A stretch of DNA of 64,000 nt, taken from NCBI GenBank assembly GCA_011192015.1, contig DUET01000064.1, forward strand, positions 9,355-73,354. The letters run 5' to 3'. The notes below the pieces were generated by a model. The model had not been told where the DNA came from. It worked only from the letters and a program-made list of their open reading frames with translations, and did no database searches. Shown here piece by piece: positions 15,326 through 23,718 of this stretch. Within the stretch, counting starts at the first letter, position 1; each line of letters opens with the position of its first letter. The position numbers and the translations under genes are program-made. Source of the stretch: Anaerolineae bacterium. GTDB taxonomy: Bacteria; Chloroflexota; Anaerolineae; Anaerolineales; E44-bin32.

Positions 15326-17809
<2,484 letters not shown>

Positions 17810-17830
17810 CCGAACCTCAATAGGAAACCC

Positions 17831-17864
17831 AAACCGCTCCGACGACGTCGGAGCGGTTTTCTTT
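17831..17864 (+). terminator. Intrinsic terminator (possibly bidirectional)
   Basis: AAACCGCTCCGAC-GAC-GTCGGAGCGGTTT followed by TCTTT. Confidence 0.85.
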
Positions 17865-17882
17865 GGCGTGGATAAGCATCCA

Positions 17883-19619
17883 TCAGCCCACCTTCACAGC
17901 TTCCTTCGTCTCCACAGCATGAGCTATCAAATCGCTGGCGCTCTCGAGATTTGCCGGGCTGACACCTCCCAGCATCAACGCCAGTTCAGCGACGCGCTTG
18001 TCTCCGGATAATGGAATCGCCTGAGCCAGCGAACGCCCTGCTTCGACGTGCTTCTCAACTTTGAAGTGTTGATCGCCAAAGGCTGCAAGTTGGGGTAGAT
18101 GCGTGACGCACAATACCTGATGGCTTGCCGCCAGTCCCCAGAGCTTTTGCCCGACGATGGCCCCCACTCTTCCACCGATCCCCTGGTCAATCTCGTCGAA
18201 GATCAATGTCGGCGTGCGATCCTGCTGGGCAAGCACGCTCTTCAAGCCCAACATCATGCGTGAAGTTTCGCCGCCGGAAGCGATCTTCACCAACGGTTTG
18301 AGCCCCTCTCCAGGATTGGGGGCTATCAGAAACTCCAATTGATCCAAGCCGGTTGGACCGAAGGAGTAGCGCTCTTCTCCCACTGGCGCGCCGGCTGGAT
18401 CCGGTTCCCAGCGGAAATCGGTGTTGAAGCGAGCCCCGGCCATCTGCAGATCCTTCAGTTCCATTTCAATGGCTTCCGCCAACTGGTCGCCTGCGCCTCT
18501 GCGCATCTGCGAGAGCTGCTCGCCGAGATCTCCCAGTTGCTCCAACAGCCCGGCCTCCCGTTGCGCTAATTCCTGGATACGCTCCTCGGCATGGATGATG
18601 GTTTCAAGTTCCTTCCTGGCCTGGTCGGCCTGCTCCAGCACCGCATGTATCCCCTCGCCATACTTCCGCTCCAGGGAACGGATCAATCCCAGCCGCTCTT
18701 CGACCTGATCCAACCTGGCGGGATTGAATTCGACCTCCTCCCGGTACAACCGCAGTCGTTTGGAGAGATCTTGGAGTTGCTCGAGCAGCGCCTGCGCCTC
18801 CAGGTTCAAGGGCTCCATGCTGGCATCGACCTTGGCCAATCTTTCGAGGCTGGCCACGCTCTCACCAAGCAGATCGGAGGCCGATCTCTCTCCGTGGTGT
18901 CCGACCACCAGGGCTTCGATCCCGGCCTCCGCAAGCGTCGCCAACTGCTCGGCGTTCGCCAAGCGTGTACGCTCTTCGACCAGCTCCTTATCTTCCCCGG
19001 GACGCAGTGCAACTGCTTCGATTTCCTGAATCTGGAACTCCAGCAGCTCCGCCTTCCGGGCAGCGTCACGTTCTCGCTGCCGCAGTTCTGCGAGTTCAAC
19101 CTGCACGTGCCCAAGATCTCGATACAGCCCAGCGAAATCATCCCTTAGTTTCTCAGCCCGCGCGTAGCGATCCAGAAGGTTGATGTGTTCCCGGACCCTG
19201 AGCAGACTCAGATGCTCGGATTGGCCGTGCACATCGACCAAGAGCTCCCCGATCGTCCTCATGGTGCTCAAATTGACGGTACGCCCATTCACACGGCAGA
19301 TGTTGCGTCCCTCAAGACGAATTTCCCGGCCCAGGGATAAAACCTCTGGCTCGTCGAGCAGCCCTTCCTGCTCCAGAAATGGATTCAACGCATGCTGGAC
19401 ATAGGCGTTCATCTGGAAGGTCCCTTCGATGATCGCCGCCTTGGCATCCGTGCGCACCATAGCGCTCTCGGCTCTGCCTCCGAGCAGCAGTTCCACGGCG
19501 TCTATGATGATCGACTTGCCGGCCCCGGTTTCACCCGTGAAGACCACAAAGCCCGGCTCCAAGAAGAGCTCGAGCTCATGGATGATGGCAAAATCCCGGA
19601 TCCGTAACTCTCTCAACAT
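17883..19619 (-). CDS. recN: DNA repair protein RecN
   Basis: TGETGAGKS, HGQ, ASGGE, FDEID, THLPQLAA. Confidence 0.97.
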   Translation of the reverse strand: MLRELRIRDFAIIHELELFLEPGFVVFTGETGAGKSIIIDAVELLLGGRAESAMVRTDAKAAIIEGTFQMNAYVQHALNPFLEQEGLLDEPEVLSLGREIRLEGRNICRVNGRTVNLSTMRTIGELLVDVHGQSEHLSLLRVREHINLLDRYARAEKLRDDFAGLYRDLGHVQVELAELRQRERDAARKAELLEFQIQEIEAVALRPGEDKELVEERTRLANAEQLATLAEAGIEALVVGHHGERSASDLLGESVASLERLAKVDASMEPLNLEAQALLEQLQDLSKRLRLYREEVEFNPARLDQVEERLGLIRSLERKYGEGIHAVLEQADQARKELETIIHAEERIQELAQREAGLLEQLGDLGEQLSQMRRGAGDQLAEAIEMELKDLQMAGARFNTDFRWEPDPAGAPVGEERYSFGPTGLDQLEFLIAPNPGEGLKPLVKIASGGETSRMMLGLKSVLAQQDRTPTLIFDEIDQGIGGRVGAIVGQKLWGLAASHQVLCVTHLPQLAAFGDQHFKVEKHVEAGRSLAQAIPLSGDKRVAELALMLGGVSPANLESASDLIAHAVETKEAVKVG

Positions 19620-19629
19620 GACTTCGAAC

Positions 19630-20178
19630 CTACGTCCTTATTGCCCTCAAACGCATGTACAGGATCGTGATGACCAGGGCTCCATGCCCCAGCGGCCACA
19701 GAATCGAAACCAAATTCCTACCTACCCAAGCCAGGTTCAGACTTCCCTGTGTCAGCAGTGCCGCCAACAACGGCCCGAAAGCATATCCGATGTAGATCAA
19801 CACGCCCAGAGCGCCTCCGATTGCGGCGGTCAGGGGCAAATTGCGGCTTCGCCTGCGGCGAACCGCGGTGCGAATGCCTTCCGCCAAGCCGCCTCCCATC
19901 ACGGGGGCGAGGAAGAAGCCCCAGAAGCCGAGGAAGCCCAGCAGGAAGGTCCCCAAGCCCACGCCTACCAATCCCAGAACGGCGGCGATGGCGTAATCGA
20001 ACCCAATTGCTGTCTCGAATACCTGCTGCTGCCCTCGAACGCAGGCCGGGCAGCGATATCCCACAGGTGTCTGAATGGCACAGCTCGTACAGATCGGCTG
20101 CCCGCATCGATTACAACGCAAGGTGGTCTCGCGATCGGGATGATTGATGCACGTGAGAATCTGCTCGGACACGATCAT
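19630..20178 (-). CDS. B-box-type zinc finger membrane protein
   Basis: CINHPDRETTLRCNRCGQPICTSC..GYRCPAC followed by about 4 TM helices. Confidence 0.75.
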   Translation of the reverse strand: MIVSEQILTCINHPDRETTLRCNRCGQPICTSCAIQTPVGYRCPACVRGQQQVFETAIGFDYAIAAVLGLVGVGLGTFLLGFLGFWGFFLAPVMGGGLAEGIRTAVRRRRSRNLPLTAAIGGALGVLIYIGYAFGPLLAALLTQGSLNLAWVGRNLVSILWPLGHGALVITILYMRLRAIRT

Positions 20179-21038
20179 CCTTTCGCCGATGGATTCTGGT
20201 TCATGCGGGAAGTCAGATTTTGATAGAAATAACTCGGATCGCGCAGGCGTGCGAACAACGTGCTGTGCTCGCTGGCGCGCACGACCACGTGATCCTCATC
20301 CTGGAGTGGTACCGGAGCCTGCCCATCTGCGCTGAGGATGGCCTGATGATCGGTTCGAATGGTGATGCGCACCCAAGAACCCTCATGGAGCACAACCGCC
20401 CGATCGACCGAGAGATGCGGAGCTACGGGAACGATGAGGATGTTGCGCAGTTCCGGAGGCAGAATGGGGCCGCCGGCAGCCAGCGCATAGGCCGTCGATC
20501 CCGTTGGGGTCGCTGTGATCAACCCGTCGGCAACATAAGTCGTCAGATGCCGGCCGTCGACCTCCGCCAGCAAGCGCACGGGGCGCACGATCTCCCCACG
20601 TCCCACGAAGCATTCATTCAGGACCACCCACGTGCCCAAGATCTTGCCGTTCCGCTCCTGTTCGGCCTTGAGCATCATGCGTTCTTCGAGCCAATACTCC
20701 CCCTTCAAGACGCGCTCCATGACCTGCTGCCAATCCCCCCGTTCAACCTCGACAAGAAATCCAAATCGTCCCAGATTGATTCCCAAGATGGGAACCTGCT
20801 GCGGTGCGCAGATGTGGCCGGCGCGCAACATCGTGCCATCCCCACCCACGGCGATGAAGAACTCGAACGCTCCCGAGCGCACTTGCTCACATAACTCCTG
20901 GTCGATGAGGGTGCCATGGGCAACCTCGATCTTGCGCTCGCGCAGATAAGCCGCAATCTCGGATGCCAATGCAGGCGCTTCCTTCATCCGATGATGGGCA
21001 ACGACGGCAATGCTCCGGGGAGGATTATGATGGCTCAT
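20175..21038 (-). CDS. nadK: NAD(+) kinase
   Basis: GGDGT, GINLGRFGFL, LNE, DGLITATPTGSTAYALAAGGP. Confidence 0.95.
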   Translation of the reverse strand: MSHHNPPRSIAVVAHHRMKEAPALASEIAAYLRERKIEVAHGTLIDQELCEQVRSGAFEFFIAVGGDGTMLRAGHICAPQQVPILGINLGRFGFLVEVERGDWQQVMERVLKGEYWLEERMMLKAEQERNGKILGTWVVLNECFVGRGEIVRPVRLLAEVDGRHLTTYVADGLITATPTGSTAYALAAGGPILPPELRNILIVPVAPHLSVDRAVVLHEGSWVRITIRTDHQAILSADGQAPVPLQDEDHVVVRASEHSTLFARLRDPSYFYQNLTSRMNQNPSAKG

Positions 21039-21117
21039 GGGAAGTATTATAGCGGAGACGGATCAAAAGGACTTCGTTCACAGCATCCACTGGTCAAAAT
21101 CCACACGCTATCGACAG

Positions 21118-21753
21118 TCAGGATCGGTTTAACTTCTTTTCAACAGCAAGCATCGCCGATCTGAGCTCACGCCTCTGGAAGCTGGTCGTCAGATCACCCC
21201 GCGTGCGCTCGGTTACACCACGCACCATGTCGTTGAGACGACGCAGATTGCCCGTGATCGCATCCGGGAAATCGATCGTCACGAGCAATCCATAAATATC
21301 GTCCATGATGGAAAGCAATCTCTCGGCTTCCTCGATTTCGTCATGTCGCAGCAGATCCAAGCTTCGACGACGCAGCTCACCGACAGTCTCCGCCAATCCT
21401 CCCAAGTAGGCCACGTATTCCACGCCTAACGCATCCGGATCAGGCAGCGGCTCCCCGCAGACGAGAGCGAAGGTAATGCAGGCTTCAGCGTATTCCTTGA
21501 ACGCGTCGCGCGTGTATCCGGCATGGTAAAGGTCGGGATATGCAGAGAGATCTTGTTGCAGCGTCTTCACCAGTTCATTGGCGGATTGGATGTGTTCCTC
21601 TGCGACCTTCCGGTCGTTGCGATGGACCGCTCGTATGGCCATGGAACAATGCCGGATCAAGGTTCGAGAATGCTTCAGCGCACCGTCCCGCGCGGCGTTC
21701 TTCTCCTCCAGGTGCTTGCGTATCTGTTCTCCGATTGCATCCAGTTTATCCAT
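21118..21753 (-). CDS. Translin/TRAX-family protein
   Basis: All-helical 211 aa with KEYAEA and YLGGLAETVGELRR motifs (cf. TRAX QEYVEA / YLLGxADxxGELMR) and LRRxxD. Confidence 0.8.
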   Translation of the reverse strand: MDKLDAIGEQIRKHLEEKNAARDGALKHSRTLIRHCSMAIRAVHRNDRKVAEEHIQSANELVKTLQQDLSAYPDLYHAGYTRDAFKEYAEACITFALVCGEPLPDPDALGVEYVAYLGGLAETVGELRRRSLDLLRHDEIEEAERLLSIMDDIYGLLVTIDFPDAITGNLRRLNDMVRGVTERTRGDLTTSFQRRELRSAMLAVEKKLNRS

Positions 21754-21758
21754 CTCCG

Positions 21759-22097
21759 CTACTCGCTATCCGGGGATTCGGGCGAGGGGGGACGGAAGAG
21801 TTGGTCTGCGAGGCTTGGCCCGGGTCCGGAAATATCGATCTCACCATACTGCGTCTCGAAACGCCCCATATGCTCCTGAATCGCTCGCAGCAACAATTTC
21901 GCGTTGCGAGGCGTCATGATCACCCGCGCCTGCACTTTCGCCTCCGGGATCTGCGGCATGACCTGAGCCAGGTCGATCACGATCTCCGAGGGGGAGTTCG
22001 TAATCATGGCAAAATTGCTGTAGATGGGTTCGAGATCCTTCGGAAGGTGCACCCGCACGCGAGCCGCGGTTTTAGGTTTCTTGGGTTGATCTGCCAT
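21759..22097 (-). CDS. DUF3467 domain protein
   Basis: YSNFAMITNSPSEIVIDL...RVIMTPRNAK...FETQYGEI. Confidence 0.85.
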   Translation of the reverse strand: MADQPKKPKTAARVRVHLPKDLEPIYSNFAMITNSPSEIVIDLAQVMPQIPEAKVQARVIMTPRNAKLLLRAIQEHMGRFETQYGEIDISGPGPSLADQLFRPPSPESPDSE

Positions 22098-22119
22098 GGA
22101 ACACTCCACATAGGATCAT

Positions 22120-22150
22120 GCCCTCAGCCGGCATGCTGTCGGCTGAGGGC
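22120..22150 (-). other. Strong hairpin after ssb without a U-tract
   Basis: GCCCTCAGCCG...CGGCTGAGGGC. Confidence 0.6.
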
Positions 22151-22166
22151 AATCGTATGGAATGGA

Positions 22167-22577
22167 TCAGAAGGGGATGTCGTCCTCAGATTCAGGCGCG
22201 CTTGGACCGCCTTCAAAGTCGACATCAGCATCATCGCGCCCGCCGAGGAAACGCACCGTCTGAGCATTGACCTCAAACGAGGCTCCGGGTGTGCCGTCCT
22301 GGCGCGTCCAAATTCTGGGGTTGCCGTTCTCATCTCCGATCAGGCGCCCTTCGACCAGCACCTGCCGTCCTTTGCGCAGGTATTGATGGCAGCTCTCTGC
22401 CTGTCGGCCCCAAACGGAGACCCGGAACCACACTGTCTCCTTGACTTGCTCGCCACTGCTGTCTGTATACGTGCGATTGGTGGCCACAGACAGATTCGTA
22501 ACGGCTTGTCCGCTCGGCGTGTAGCGCATTTCGGGATCACGCCCGAGGTTGCCAGCAAGAACGATTCTCTGATACAT
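22167..22577 (-). CDS. ssb: Single-stranded DNA-binding protein
   Basis: LAGNLGRDPEMRYTPSG; C-terminal DDIPF. Confidence 0.97.
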   Translation of the reverse strand: MYQRIVLAGNLGRDPEMRYTPSGQAVTNLSVATNRTYTDSSGEQVKETVWFRVSVWGRQAESCHQYLRKGRQVLVEGRLIGDENGNPRIWTRQDGTPGASFEVNAQTVRFLGGRDDADVDFEGGPSAPESEDDIPF

Positions 22578-22656
22578 GGGGAATATCCTTTCCGATGGGG
22601 GCAATCTATCGTTCTGACCCGGGTGGTCAGTGCAGTGTACAGTTGCCCAACGGTCT

Positions 22657-22691
22657 AGAACAATTGTACTACTAAACGCGCTCCATGTCAA
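22657..22691 (-). promoter_or_regulatory. Sigma70 promoter of ssb with overlapping LexA-type box
   Basis: Minus-strand TTGACA-N17-TACAAT; AGAAC-AATT-GTACT at 22657-22670 overlaps the -10. Confidence 0.65.
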
Positions 22692-22791
22692 GATTCTTCC
22701 TTCCTGGGACAGATTTGACGGCCTTCCTTCCCCCGGGTAGACTGACATCCGTTACAAGCTCCATCACATCCTTTCTTGGAAGCCAAGGATC

Positions 22792-23718
22792 ATGCCCCTC
22801 CGCCGTAAATTGATTTGGATCGCGATCCTCTTGGGGGCTGCACTGGCCATCTGGCTACTCAACGTGAGCAGACCCGGCAGGAATGTGCGCGGTTGTCCGC
22901 AAGGTTGCGCGACAGATGCCCGGCGGCTCGACGGCCCCCTGCGCGTGGCCTCGTTGAACATGCTCCATGGTCATCCGGATTTCGAACATCTTGAATCGCG
23001 AATGGATCTTATCGCCGATGAGATCCTTGCCCTAGACGCCGACATCGTCTTACTGCAGGAGGTCCCGTGGACGGTTACACTGGGAGATGTTGCCGAGTAC
23101 ATCGCTCAGCGCTGCGGCATGAACCACGTCTATCTTCGCTCCAACGGCAACCGCTGGGCGATCTTCTTCGAGGAGGGCTCCGCCATCCTCAGCCGCTATG
23201 CGCTGAAGAATCCCTCCTTTACAGAGCTTCGCCCTCGAGCAGCGTTCTTCGAGCACCGCATCGCGCTGCATGCCACAGCGATCACTCCTTGGGGCGACGT
23301 CGATGTCTTCGTCACCCATCTCACGGACGGTGAAGACGAGATCAATCAAGCCCAGGCCGAAGCCCTGCAGGCATTCGTGCAGGCAACCGGCCGCGCTCCA
23401 GCCATCGTGGGGGGCGACTTCAACGCCAGGGAGGATGAAGCGCATATGCTCGCGCTGGCCACGGTTTGGACGGATGCCTACCGCTCCGTGCATGCAACCG
23501 ACCTGGGATGGACTTGCTGCATCGATGAACTGACCACAGACCCTTCCGAGCCCCTGGAAAAACGCATTGACTACATCTTCATGGTGCCGCGCACAGGAGC
23601 AACGATGCGTATTCAAAGCGCGGAGATCGTCTTCGATCGGCCATCGCCCACCGACACGGGTTGGCTCTGGTCCTCCGATCATCTTGGGCTCATGCTCGAG
23701 ATCAAGATGGCTCCCTGA
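22792..23718 (+). CDS. Endonuclease/exonuclease/phosphatase family protein, membrane-anchored
   Basis: SLN, LQEV, THL, GGDFN, IDYIF, SDH motifs. Confidence 0.9.
   Translation: MPLRRKLIWIAILLGAALAIWLLNVSRPGRNVRGCPQGCATDARRLDGPLRVASLNMLHGHPDFEHLESRMDLIADEILALDADIVLLQEVPWTVTLGDVAEYIAQRCGMNHVYLRSNGNRWAIFFEEGSAILSRYALKNPSFTELRPRAAFFEHRIALHATAITPWGDVDVFVTHLTDGEDEINQAQAEALQAFVQATGRAPAIVGGDFNAREDEAHMLALATVWTDAYRSVHATDLGWTCCIDELTTDPSEPLEKRIDYIFMVPRTGATMRIQSAEIVFDRPSPTDTGWLWSSDHLGLMLEIKMAP

Follow-up and report, generated by a model that had tools for sequence, protein, structure and literature searches.

Two kinds of described system come closest to the locus reported here. One is the gene for the single-stranded DNA-binding protein (SSB) of Escherichia coli, ssb, which is under SOS control with a LexA operator at its promoter in the uvrA-ssb divergent region; the LexA box of this species has the form CTGT-N8-ACAG and its SSB is the only one. 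The other is TRAX/C3PO, known from eukaryotic RNA interference, from tRNA processing and from two archaeal crystal structures, with translin, the partner of TRAX, first linked to DNA breakpoints in eukaryotes. The passages of Zhang et al. 2016 used here (PMC5100593) place the catalytic residues of eukaryotic C3PO on the TRAX subunit and describe the archaeal NeC3PO as a homo-octamer that cleaves single-stranded (ss) RNA, ssDNA, double-stranded (ds) RNA and dsDNA in vitro. For Bacillus and Gram-positive bacteria, the LexA site is given as GAAC-N4-GTTC in an excerpt of PMC3323433. Here we analyze a stretch of 64,000 nucleotides (nt) from the genome of an Anaerolineae bacterium (contig DUET01000064.1; the whole stretch is called the window below), in which an ssb gene is followed by a gene for a DUF3467 protein and by a TRAX/C3PO-type gene. 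We read this locus as a LexA-repressed Anaerolineae ssb operon that carries a probably active C3PO-type nuclease as its distal, lower-expressed gene, and give this reading a probability of roughly one half.

The operon lies on the minus strand. Its first gene, ssb (22167-22577), encodes 136 amino acids (aa) with an OB fold and a C-terminal partner-binding tip (...EDDIPF). The DUF3467 gene follows (21759-22097, minus strand, 112 aa, with GGAG-N6 ahead of the ATG at 22097), and 5 nt further on comes the TRAX/C3PO-type gene (21118-21753, minus strand, 211 aa). Upstream of ssb, the promoter TTGACA-N17-TACAAT (22691-22663) matches at 11 of 12 positions, with its -35 hexamer at 22686-22691 and its -10 hexamer at 22663-22668, 17 nt past the -35; from 17500 to 23000 the minus strand has no other promoter-like site. 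The -10 hexamer is overlapped by a 16-bp near-palindrome, TAGAACAATTGTACTA (22656-22671), which is the placement needed to block this promoter. The LexA-like palindrome within it, AGAACAATTGTACT (22657-22670), has GAAC in one half and GTAC in the other (core GAAC-N4-GTAC), a one-base departure from GAAC-N4-GTTC. A preliminary description of the window had reported these co-directional genes with their 5-nt gap, the promoter with a LexA-type palindrome over its -10, a hairpin without a U-tract between ssb and DUF3467, and nadK and recN downstream of TRAX. Re-derived coordinates, Pfam matches and the comparisons below bear out all of these points.

The genome's own SOS genes share the palindrome type. 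The lexA promoter (C51) reads TTGACT-taGAACggatGTTCcgc-TAGAAT-gaGAACaagcGTGC and has two boxes around its -10, and the recA promoter (C96) reads TTGACA-ca-TAGAACACTTGTGCTA-TACT with one box between -35 and -10. The half-site position at which the ssb operator departs from GAAC-N4-GTTC also varies, as GTGC, in lexA box 2 and in the recA box. In its 16-mer form, TAGAAC-N4-GNNCTA, the motif occurs at three sites in the 2.95-Mb genome, namely ssb, recA and upstream of rpoC.

Conservation of the box was assessed with the pattern GAAC-N4-GT[ATG]C or its complement, at most 300 nt upstream of the operon ssb. Such a box is present in 38 of 48 related loci (13/15, 0/1, 18/24 and 7/8 by locus group), and the conserved boxes sit at about -91 to -124. 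As a control, TRAX genes located outside the ssb operon have a LexA-type box upstream in 1 of 43 cases. The box follows ssb and not TRAX, because 7 of the 8 ssb-DUF3467 loci without TRAX carry it compared with this single TRAX gene elsewhere. With the box as anchor, 31 distinct promoters show almost no variation in the box or in its TA/CTA flanks, whereas their -35/-10 spacers differ freely; most of them have TTGACA or a near match at equal spacing. A contig labelled Anaerolinea thermophila shows the same arrangement with a related box. More distant ssb-DUF3467 loci keep the half-sites but diverge in the four bases between them and in the flanks, as in ACGAACTCTTGTTCTG and AAGAACTTAAGTTCTA; this is the pattern of a binding site and not merely of an inherited stretch. 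We therefore consider it likely that TAGAACAATTGTACTA is a working LexA operator, as predicted from its position and conservation.

LexA-type boxes were also seen elsewhere in the same genome. The promoter of a gene for a 139-aa LuxR/GerE-type protein (C89:5243, L032) has a perfect AGAACAATTGTTCT between its -35 and -10, two boxes stand ahead of a DUF6504 gene (C95:43512 and 43541, L033), and one lies inside the listed mraZ open reading frame (ORF), 5' of the MraZ-domain match and upstream of mraW (C24:4940, L031). The box upstream of rpoC, TAGAACATGTGTGCTA, is about 60 nt from that gene (C107:13863, L126), and the genome's uvrA has a version with two mismatches, TAGATCATTTGTGCTA.

The 211-aa protein is a genuine TRAX-type member. 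In a phmmer search against solved structures its best match is AfTRAX (3ZC0/3ZC1; 7.6e-24, 87.8 bits, residues 9-190), and Nanoarchaeum C3PO NEQ131 (5JR9) is matched at 6.4e-12. The NCBIfam models PRK14562.1-5 reach 1.4e-78 and 263 bits, below the equivalog cut-off of 291. With the Pfam Translin model (PF01997) we obtained a partial match to residues 105-155 at 16 bits (E 0.012; cut-off 25.9). In view of the strong matches to the solved archaeal relatives, we attribute this weak score to the limited reach of that model. The family assignment made in the preliminary description thus holds by unambiguous homology to solved TRAX proteins, with a sub-threshold Pfam match and no Translin hit above the cut-off. 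The PRK14562 models carry the name 'haloacid dehalogenase superfamily protein', a misnomer given that the fold and the solved relatives are those of TRAX/C3PO.

An AlphaFold2 model built from 21 Chloroflexota sequences is all helical, with a predicted local distance difference test score (pLDDT) of 94.8 and a predicted template modeling score (pTM) of 0.87. Foldseek superimposed it on AfC3PO chain 3zc1_C with template modeling (TM) scores of 0.84/0.93 and a root mean square deviation of 1.4 Å, followed by 5jrc_A (0.80/0.90) and human 3pja_L (0.75/0.71). The acidic site consists of E87, E90, E122 and E126, which align with E82, E85, D117 and E121 of NeTrax; the third position is D114 in AfC3PO. 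R129 aligns with the substrate-binding R124 of NeTrax. In 31/31 Chloroflexota sequences, which share 43-68% identity with the window protein, E stands at each of the four acidic positions and R at position 129. Judged from its invariance in these 31 sequences, the E-for-D change is fixed in the clade and does not reflect decay. Acidic residues at the catalytic positions (KEYAE; LAETVGE), with E for the usual D, had been noted in the preliminary description, and the phmmer matches, the 31/31 conservation and the superposition of the model agree in aligning them with E, E, D and E of AfTRAX and NeTrax. By these sequence criteria the protein is probably an active nuclease.

Whether TRAX shares the ssb transcript depends on the 69-nt gap between ssb and DUF3467, which contains a G+C-rich hairpin (22120-22150, minus strand, 11-bp stem, 9-nt loop). 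The hairpin and its flanks together have a folding energy of -37.6 kcal/mol (z -6.4), which none of 200 shuffles reached. Of 48 sequences, comprising the window and 47 loci, 40 have a hairpin of -12 kcal/mol or lower at this position, with stems that differ in sequence. The tail of the window hairpin, AUGAUCCUAUGUGG, has no U-tract, with 3 T in the 8 nt past the extended stem, and 3 of the 40 orthologous hairpins have at least 5 T in the next 8 nt. We therefore do not class it as a canonical intrinsic terminator, and the terminator scan did not call it; on the minus strand between 17500 and 23000, the scan called no canonical terminator upstream of the terminator-like site behind recN (17813-17801, minus strand). 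DUF3467 starts about 22 nt downstream of the hairpin, and the promoter scan found no promoter-like site inside ssb or between the hairpin and DUF3467, so the mRNA for DUF3467 and TRAX must cross the hairpin. The hairpin may be a partial stop, or a stabilizer that protects the 3' end, and in either case may hold SSB output above that of the distal genes. The spacing between DUF3467 and TRAX is 2-14 nt in 13 of 15 relatives, and such a short gap fits coupled translation.

The lower stem of the hairpin (window 22098-22166) also pairs the Shine-Dalgarno sequence of DUF3467 (GGAG) with bases just past the ssb stop codon. Coupling of DUF3467 translation to ssb by this pairing was not built upon, as close relatives are without it.

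The gene order, the homology and fold of the TRAX protein, its conserved acidic site and the type and conservation of the operator would fit the following course. The operon is headed by an SSB paralogue bearing the partner-binding IPF tip, and LexA bound to TAGAACAATTGTACTA would occlude its sigma-70-type promoter at the -10. Upon DNA damage, RecA-stimulated self-cleavage of LexA would lift the block, giving a transcript made of the structured leader, ssb and the conserved G+C hairpin without a U-tract. By acting as a partial stop or 3'-end stabilizer, the hairpin would keep SSB output higher than that of the distal genes, while the mRNA that crosses it would carry DUF3467 and TRAX, probably translationally coupled across their 5 nt. 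The TRAX protein would most likely be a divalent-cation-dependent, homo-oligomeric C3PO-type endonuclease that cuts single strands exposed during repair, either ssDNA or RNA, for instance remnants of hybrids or primers. Transcription may run on into nadK, the B-box gene and recN, none of which has a LexA-type box of its own. Binding and induction by LexA, read-through, the activity and substrate of the nuclease and any role for DUF3467 are what we infer in this course.

The product of the operon ssb (PF00436 1.3e-30, TIGR00621 4.9e-34) has the tail ...SEDDIPF, and all 48 orthologues of the operon SSB end in [IL]PF; in bacteria, the C-terminal IPF tip of SSB is the binding site for partner proteins. 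The genome has two SSB paralogues that are 41% identical. The second, of 131 aa, is encoded in rpsF-ssb-rpsR (C40, L124:1122-2234) and ends in ...EENTNSY, without the IPF tip. Here the LexA-boxed copy has the tip, a pattern opposite to that of Bacillus SsbA and SsbB.

Support for a role of TRAX in repair comes from its surroundings within the lineage. Besides recN downstream in the window, a Cas4-like PD-(D/E)XK nuclease gene (PF01930 5.5e-10) lies just downstream of TRAX in many Anaerolineae. In Chloroflexaceae, TRAX stands directly past rpoC and is followed by a gene with a NurA domain (L027:22-2895, L028:27-5747), and an ATP-dependent DNA ligase is near TRAX in another locus (L025). This lineage-specific context suggests a repair role for TRAX and hints at one in the response to DNA damage. 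In vitro, NeC3PO accepts ssDNA and dsDNA besides RNA (excerpt of PMC5100593), which is in keeping with such a role. Many relatives have, between TRAX and nadK, an ORF of about 80 aa that belongs to no family together with the Cas4-like nuclease gene (L045:3481-4239, L010:4691-5285), and the window has neither.

Several observations weigh against our reading, and most of them concern the question of whether TRAX belongs to the SOS response at all. TRAX may instead be a constitutive housekeeping RNA nuclease, acting on tRNA or rRNA leaders or fragments as has been suggested for C3PO of fungi and archaea, that travels as a passenger behind ssb; LexA would then control ssb alone, and the hairpin would end most damage-induced transcripts. 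This is the main rival to a LexA-repressed operon with TRAX as its distal gene, and we take it seriously at rather long odds. Of 401 Chloroflexota genomes sampled, 221 gave a TRAX gene, two of these 221 being unpublished (G227 and G145; 219/399 without these). In the window's own taxonomic order it is present in all 24 sampled genomes of one family and all 9 of another. Among 14 control genomes the NCBIfam TRAX model matched three, each of them archaeal. A protein search gave 30 TRAX loci. In 15 of them the order is ssb-DUF3467-TRAX, usually with nadK, the B-box gene and recN behind it; one is ssb-TRAX without a DUF3467 match, one was too short, and 13 have other settings (Herpetosiphon, Chloroflexaceae, Dehalococcoidia). 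Among 36 further loci, taken mostly one per family from the survey of Chloroflexota genomes, three have the three-gene order and one has DUF3467-TRAX. The link to ssb is thus confined to Anaerolineae and close kin.

Elsewhere the neighbors of TRAX depend on the lineage and are mostly unrelated to repair. They include ThiD2/TenI with an H+-pyrophosphatase (L140, L145, L152, L154, L017), UbiA (L132, L139, L153, L157), alcohol dehydrogenases, DUF5343 and an AlaX-like protein (L127). We looked across the Chloroflexota loci for a repair context shared by TRAX throughout the phylum and found none. Because of this, and because of the box at just one of the 43 TRAX genes elsewhere, the tie to SOS may be a property of ssb, and TRAX may be a passenger; the box kept in seven of eight ssb-DUF3467 loci that have no TRAX points the same way. 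Some neighbors are RNA-related, namely the AlaX-like gene, a pseudouridine synthase (L143) and rpoC (L027, L028). The strong hairpin behind ssb in 40 of 48 sequences also suits an operon that is cut short after its first gene, as G+C hairpins without a U-tract can terminate transcription in some bacteria. In addition, an excerpt of PMC5424206 links an archaeal homologue to SepRS, pointing to a role in tRNA or RNA. Against the passenger explanation, the roughly 22 nt between the hairpin and DUF3467 are too short for a promoter and none lies inside ssb, so that the mRNA has to cross the hairpin, which has a U-rich tail in just 3 of 40 cases. Moreover, the three-gene order, often with the Cas4-like nuclease gene and recN behind it, has been kept across many genera.

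The 112-aa product of the second gene matches DUF3467 strongly (PF11950, 73.2 bits, cut-off 25, E 1.8e-20). We collected 80 DUF3467 loci with the DUF3467 alignment; some of their flanks are short, so the linkage counts are lower bounds. Of these, 24 are ssb-DUF3467-TRAX, eight are ssb-DUF3467 without TRAX, four are DUF3467-TRAX without an ssb match and 44 are neither, which places DUF3467 with ssb in 32/80 loci, with TRAX in 28/80 and alone in 44/80. Within the class, 31 of 61 genomes gave a DUF3467 match. Herpetosiphon carries the gene far from TRAX, and in Bacteroidota it follows rpoC (L103, L115), topA (L116) or a HAD hydrolase gene (L089, L101). The Thermus and Bacteroides control genomes have DUF3467 and gave no TRAX match. 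Conversely, no DUF3467 match was found in six TRAX-bearing genomes that are 97-100% complete (G121, G031, G314, G094, G338, G210). DUF3467 is therefore a small protein that tends to adjoin nucleic-acid enzymes and is not an obligate partner of TRAX. The single damage-inducible module with a DUF3467 partner proposed in the preliminary description is weakened, as DUF3467 tracks ssb as often as TRAX, at least six near-complete TRAX genomes are without it, and the box tracks ssb. TRAX and DUF3467 genes both recur beside RNA polymerase genes, in different phyla.

The structure model of DUF3467 comprises three strands and a long helix (pLDDT 81), with a poorly modeled C-terminal stretch (pLDDT 42-60) that holds a conserved LADQLF motif. 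VIA-align gave Z scores of 6.1 for COMMD, 5.0 for Borrelia Pur-alpha, 4.8 for MoSub1 and 4.7 for PC4 over about 57-62 residues, all below the background Z of about 8. Foldseek against the PDB returned nothing at E 0.001 or better, and the ESM Atlas gave the protein's own family plus unnamed clusters only, with scores up to 0.76. A firm fold assignment was rejected on the basis of the empty Foldseek result and the VIA-align scores of 6.1 or less. The PC4/Sub1, Pur-alpha and COMM folds are no more than a lead: like the DUF3467 model, they place a long helix behind three or four antiparallel strands, and they show no sequence similarity to it.

A second alternative concerns the palindrome, which might not be a LexA site and might instead be conserved as part of the promoter and start region, or serve another regulator, for example in autoregulation by SSB together with the leader. 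The box overlaps the -10, so that the promoter accounts for part of its conservation; one half-site is GTAC in place of GTTC; and the pattern used gave no box in 10 of 48 related ssb promoters. Counted inside the window alone, the box does not reach significance either: AGAACNNNNGTNCT matches twice where 0.27 matches are expected, and 7 of 100 shuffles also have at least two. The weight of the operator accordingly comes from its conservation, its position and the motifs of the genome's own SOS genes. Other control of ssb does exist, as indicated by its structured 5' untranslated region (22578-22656, minus strand), a leader of about 79 nt when counted from the transcription start inferred from the -10. 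Its outer stem pairs CCGTTGGG (22646-22653) with CCCATCGG (22592-22599), ends just ahead of the Shine-Dalgarno sequence and encloses an inner G+C hairpin, GACCACCCGGGTC. Compensatory changes occur at 5 of 7 pairs of the outer stem across 25 sequences, and the inner hairpin covaries by eye. No Rfam match was found in 20900-23000 with E values up to 1. The leader could be an autoregulatory or stabilizing element.

Four points make a non-LexA palindrome improbable. Conservation reaches through GTTCTA, past the -10 hexamer. In the distant ssb-DUF3467 loci, boxes that fit GAAC-N4-GTTC perfectly stand at equal distance and have unrelated spacers. The lexA and recA promoters of the same genome use the same motif type, including GTGC variants at the very half-site position where ssb has GTAC, and outside ssb and recA the 16-mer form has a single further site in the genome.

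A nuclease-dead, translin-like oligomeric shell that binds ssDNA or RNA is highly improbable: E does replace the M2-coordinating aspartate (D117 of NeC3PO, D114 of AfC3PO), a point against our reading, and D117N strongly weakens NeC3PO (excerpt of PMC5100593), but E retains the carboxylate, and a tetrad and R129 invariant in all 31 sequences at 43-68% identity form the pattern expected of a working active site.

Downstream of TRAX, the minus strand continues with nadK (20175-21038, NAD kinase by Pfam), a gene for a 182-aa B-box zinc-finger membrane protein (19630-20178, PF00643 7e-06) and recN (17883-19619, RecN/SMC by Pfam), and the Pfam matches of the window proteins comprise these three domains in addition to SSB (1.3e-30) and DUF3467 (1.8e-20). 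The successive gaps from ssb to recN are 69, 5, 79, -4 and 10 nt; the B-box gene overlaps the end of nadK by 4 nt and holds the same place in most relatives. In the window's 79-nt gap between TRAX and nadK no LexA-type box was found, and the same gap in 31 relatives has the loose LexA pattern in six and a stricter form in two (L026, L044). RecN is encoded by an SOS gene in many bacteria. Here, as the 79-nt gap holds no such box, recN may depend on read-through from the ssb promoter or lie outside LexA control altogether. On the plus strand, a divergent gene of the endonuclease/exonuclease/phosphatase family, encoding a hydrophobic N-terminus, lies at 22792-23718, and tblastn of the first 30 related loci found no counterpart beside ssb.

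A bolder version of our reading takes the whole stretch from ssb to recN as one LexA-controlled repair operon. In it, a homo-oligomeric C3PO of the E-E-E-E type would be recruited to SSB-coated strands via the IPF tip or a PC4/Pur-alpha-like DUF3467 adaptor, trimming ssDNA or clearing hybrid RNA in the course of recombinational repair. We regard this version as doubtful. If true, it would give the first DNA-damage function, and the first cellular function, shown for a bacterial TRAX. The locus makes the role of prokaryotic TRAX directly testable, as the group includes cultured strains. Should induction and nuclease activity hold, an ancient nuclease family would be tied to DNA repair; should they fail, the locus would be one more ordinary example of a family whose presence in Chloroflexi is already on record.

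TRAX of Chloroflexi was reportedly described by Gupta, Kale and Kumar in 2012 (J Mol Evol 75:155). Our literature searches, made in one library, found no characterized bacterial TRAX and no link of translin or TRAX to bacterial LexA or an ssb operon, and those on DUF3467 or PRK14562 gave nothing on an ssb-DUF3467-TRAX system. The preliminary description had stated that no characterized bacterial example was known. This seems true for biochemistry, while the family itself has been in print for Chloroflexi since 2012: the part of Zhang et al. 2016 used here, citing Gupta, Kale and Kumar 2012, states a single translin-superfamily gene in Chloroflexi (PMC5100593), which is the same family and phylum as the window protein. 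The protein as such is therefore not new; what is new for this known family is its operon context, which is probably under SOS control.

Compared with the described C3PO systems, the window TRAX shares the all-helical fold of the eukaryotic complexes (3PJA, 3AXJ, 3QB5; TM 0.75-0.78). Those are hetero-oligomers of translin and TRAX that act in RNA interference and tRNA processing, whereas here one gene with 14-17% identity stands in a bacterial ssb operon. NeC3PO (NEQ131; 5JR9, 5JRC, 5JRE) is closer in structure (TM 0.80/0.90) and shares the aligned tetrad and the arginine with bacterial TRAX; it differs in sequence (22% identity), in having D and not E at the M2 site, and in its genomic setting. 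The closest solved relative is AfTRAX/AfC3PO (PDB 3ZC0, 3ZC1), a single-gene TRAX-like protein with 34% identity and the same E..E and (D/E)xxxE motifs. It is archaeal, has D114 where the window protein and the 31 Chloroflexota proteins have E, and has no ssb or LexA context. To our knowledge, no nuclease or DUF3467 gene lies behind ssb in E. coli. The present ssb likewise has a LexA-type operator at its promoter, but of the GAAC-N4-GTTC type; its genome has a second, tail-less SSB in rpsF-ssb-rpsR, and the genes for DUF3467 and a C3PO-type nuclease follow the operon ssb.

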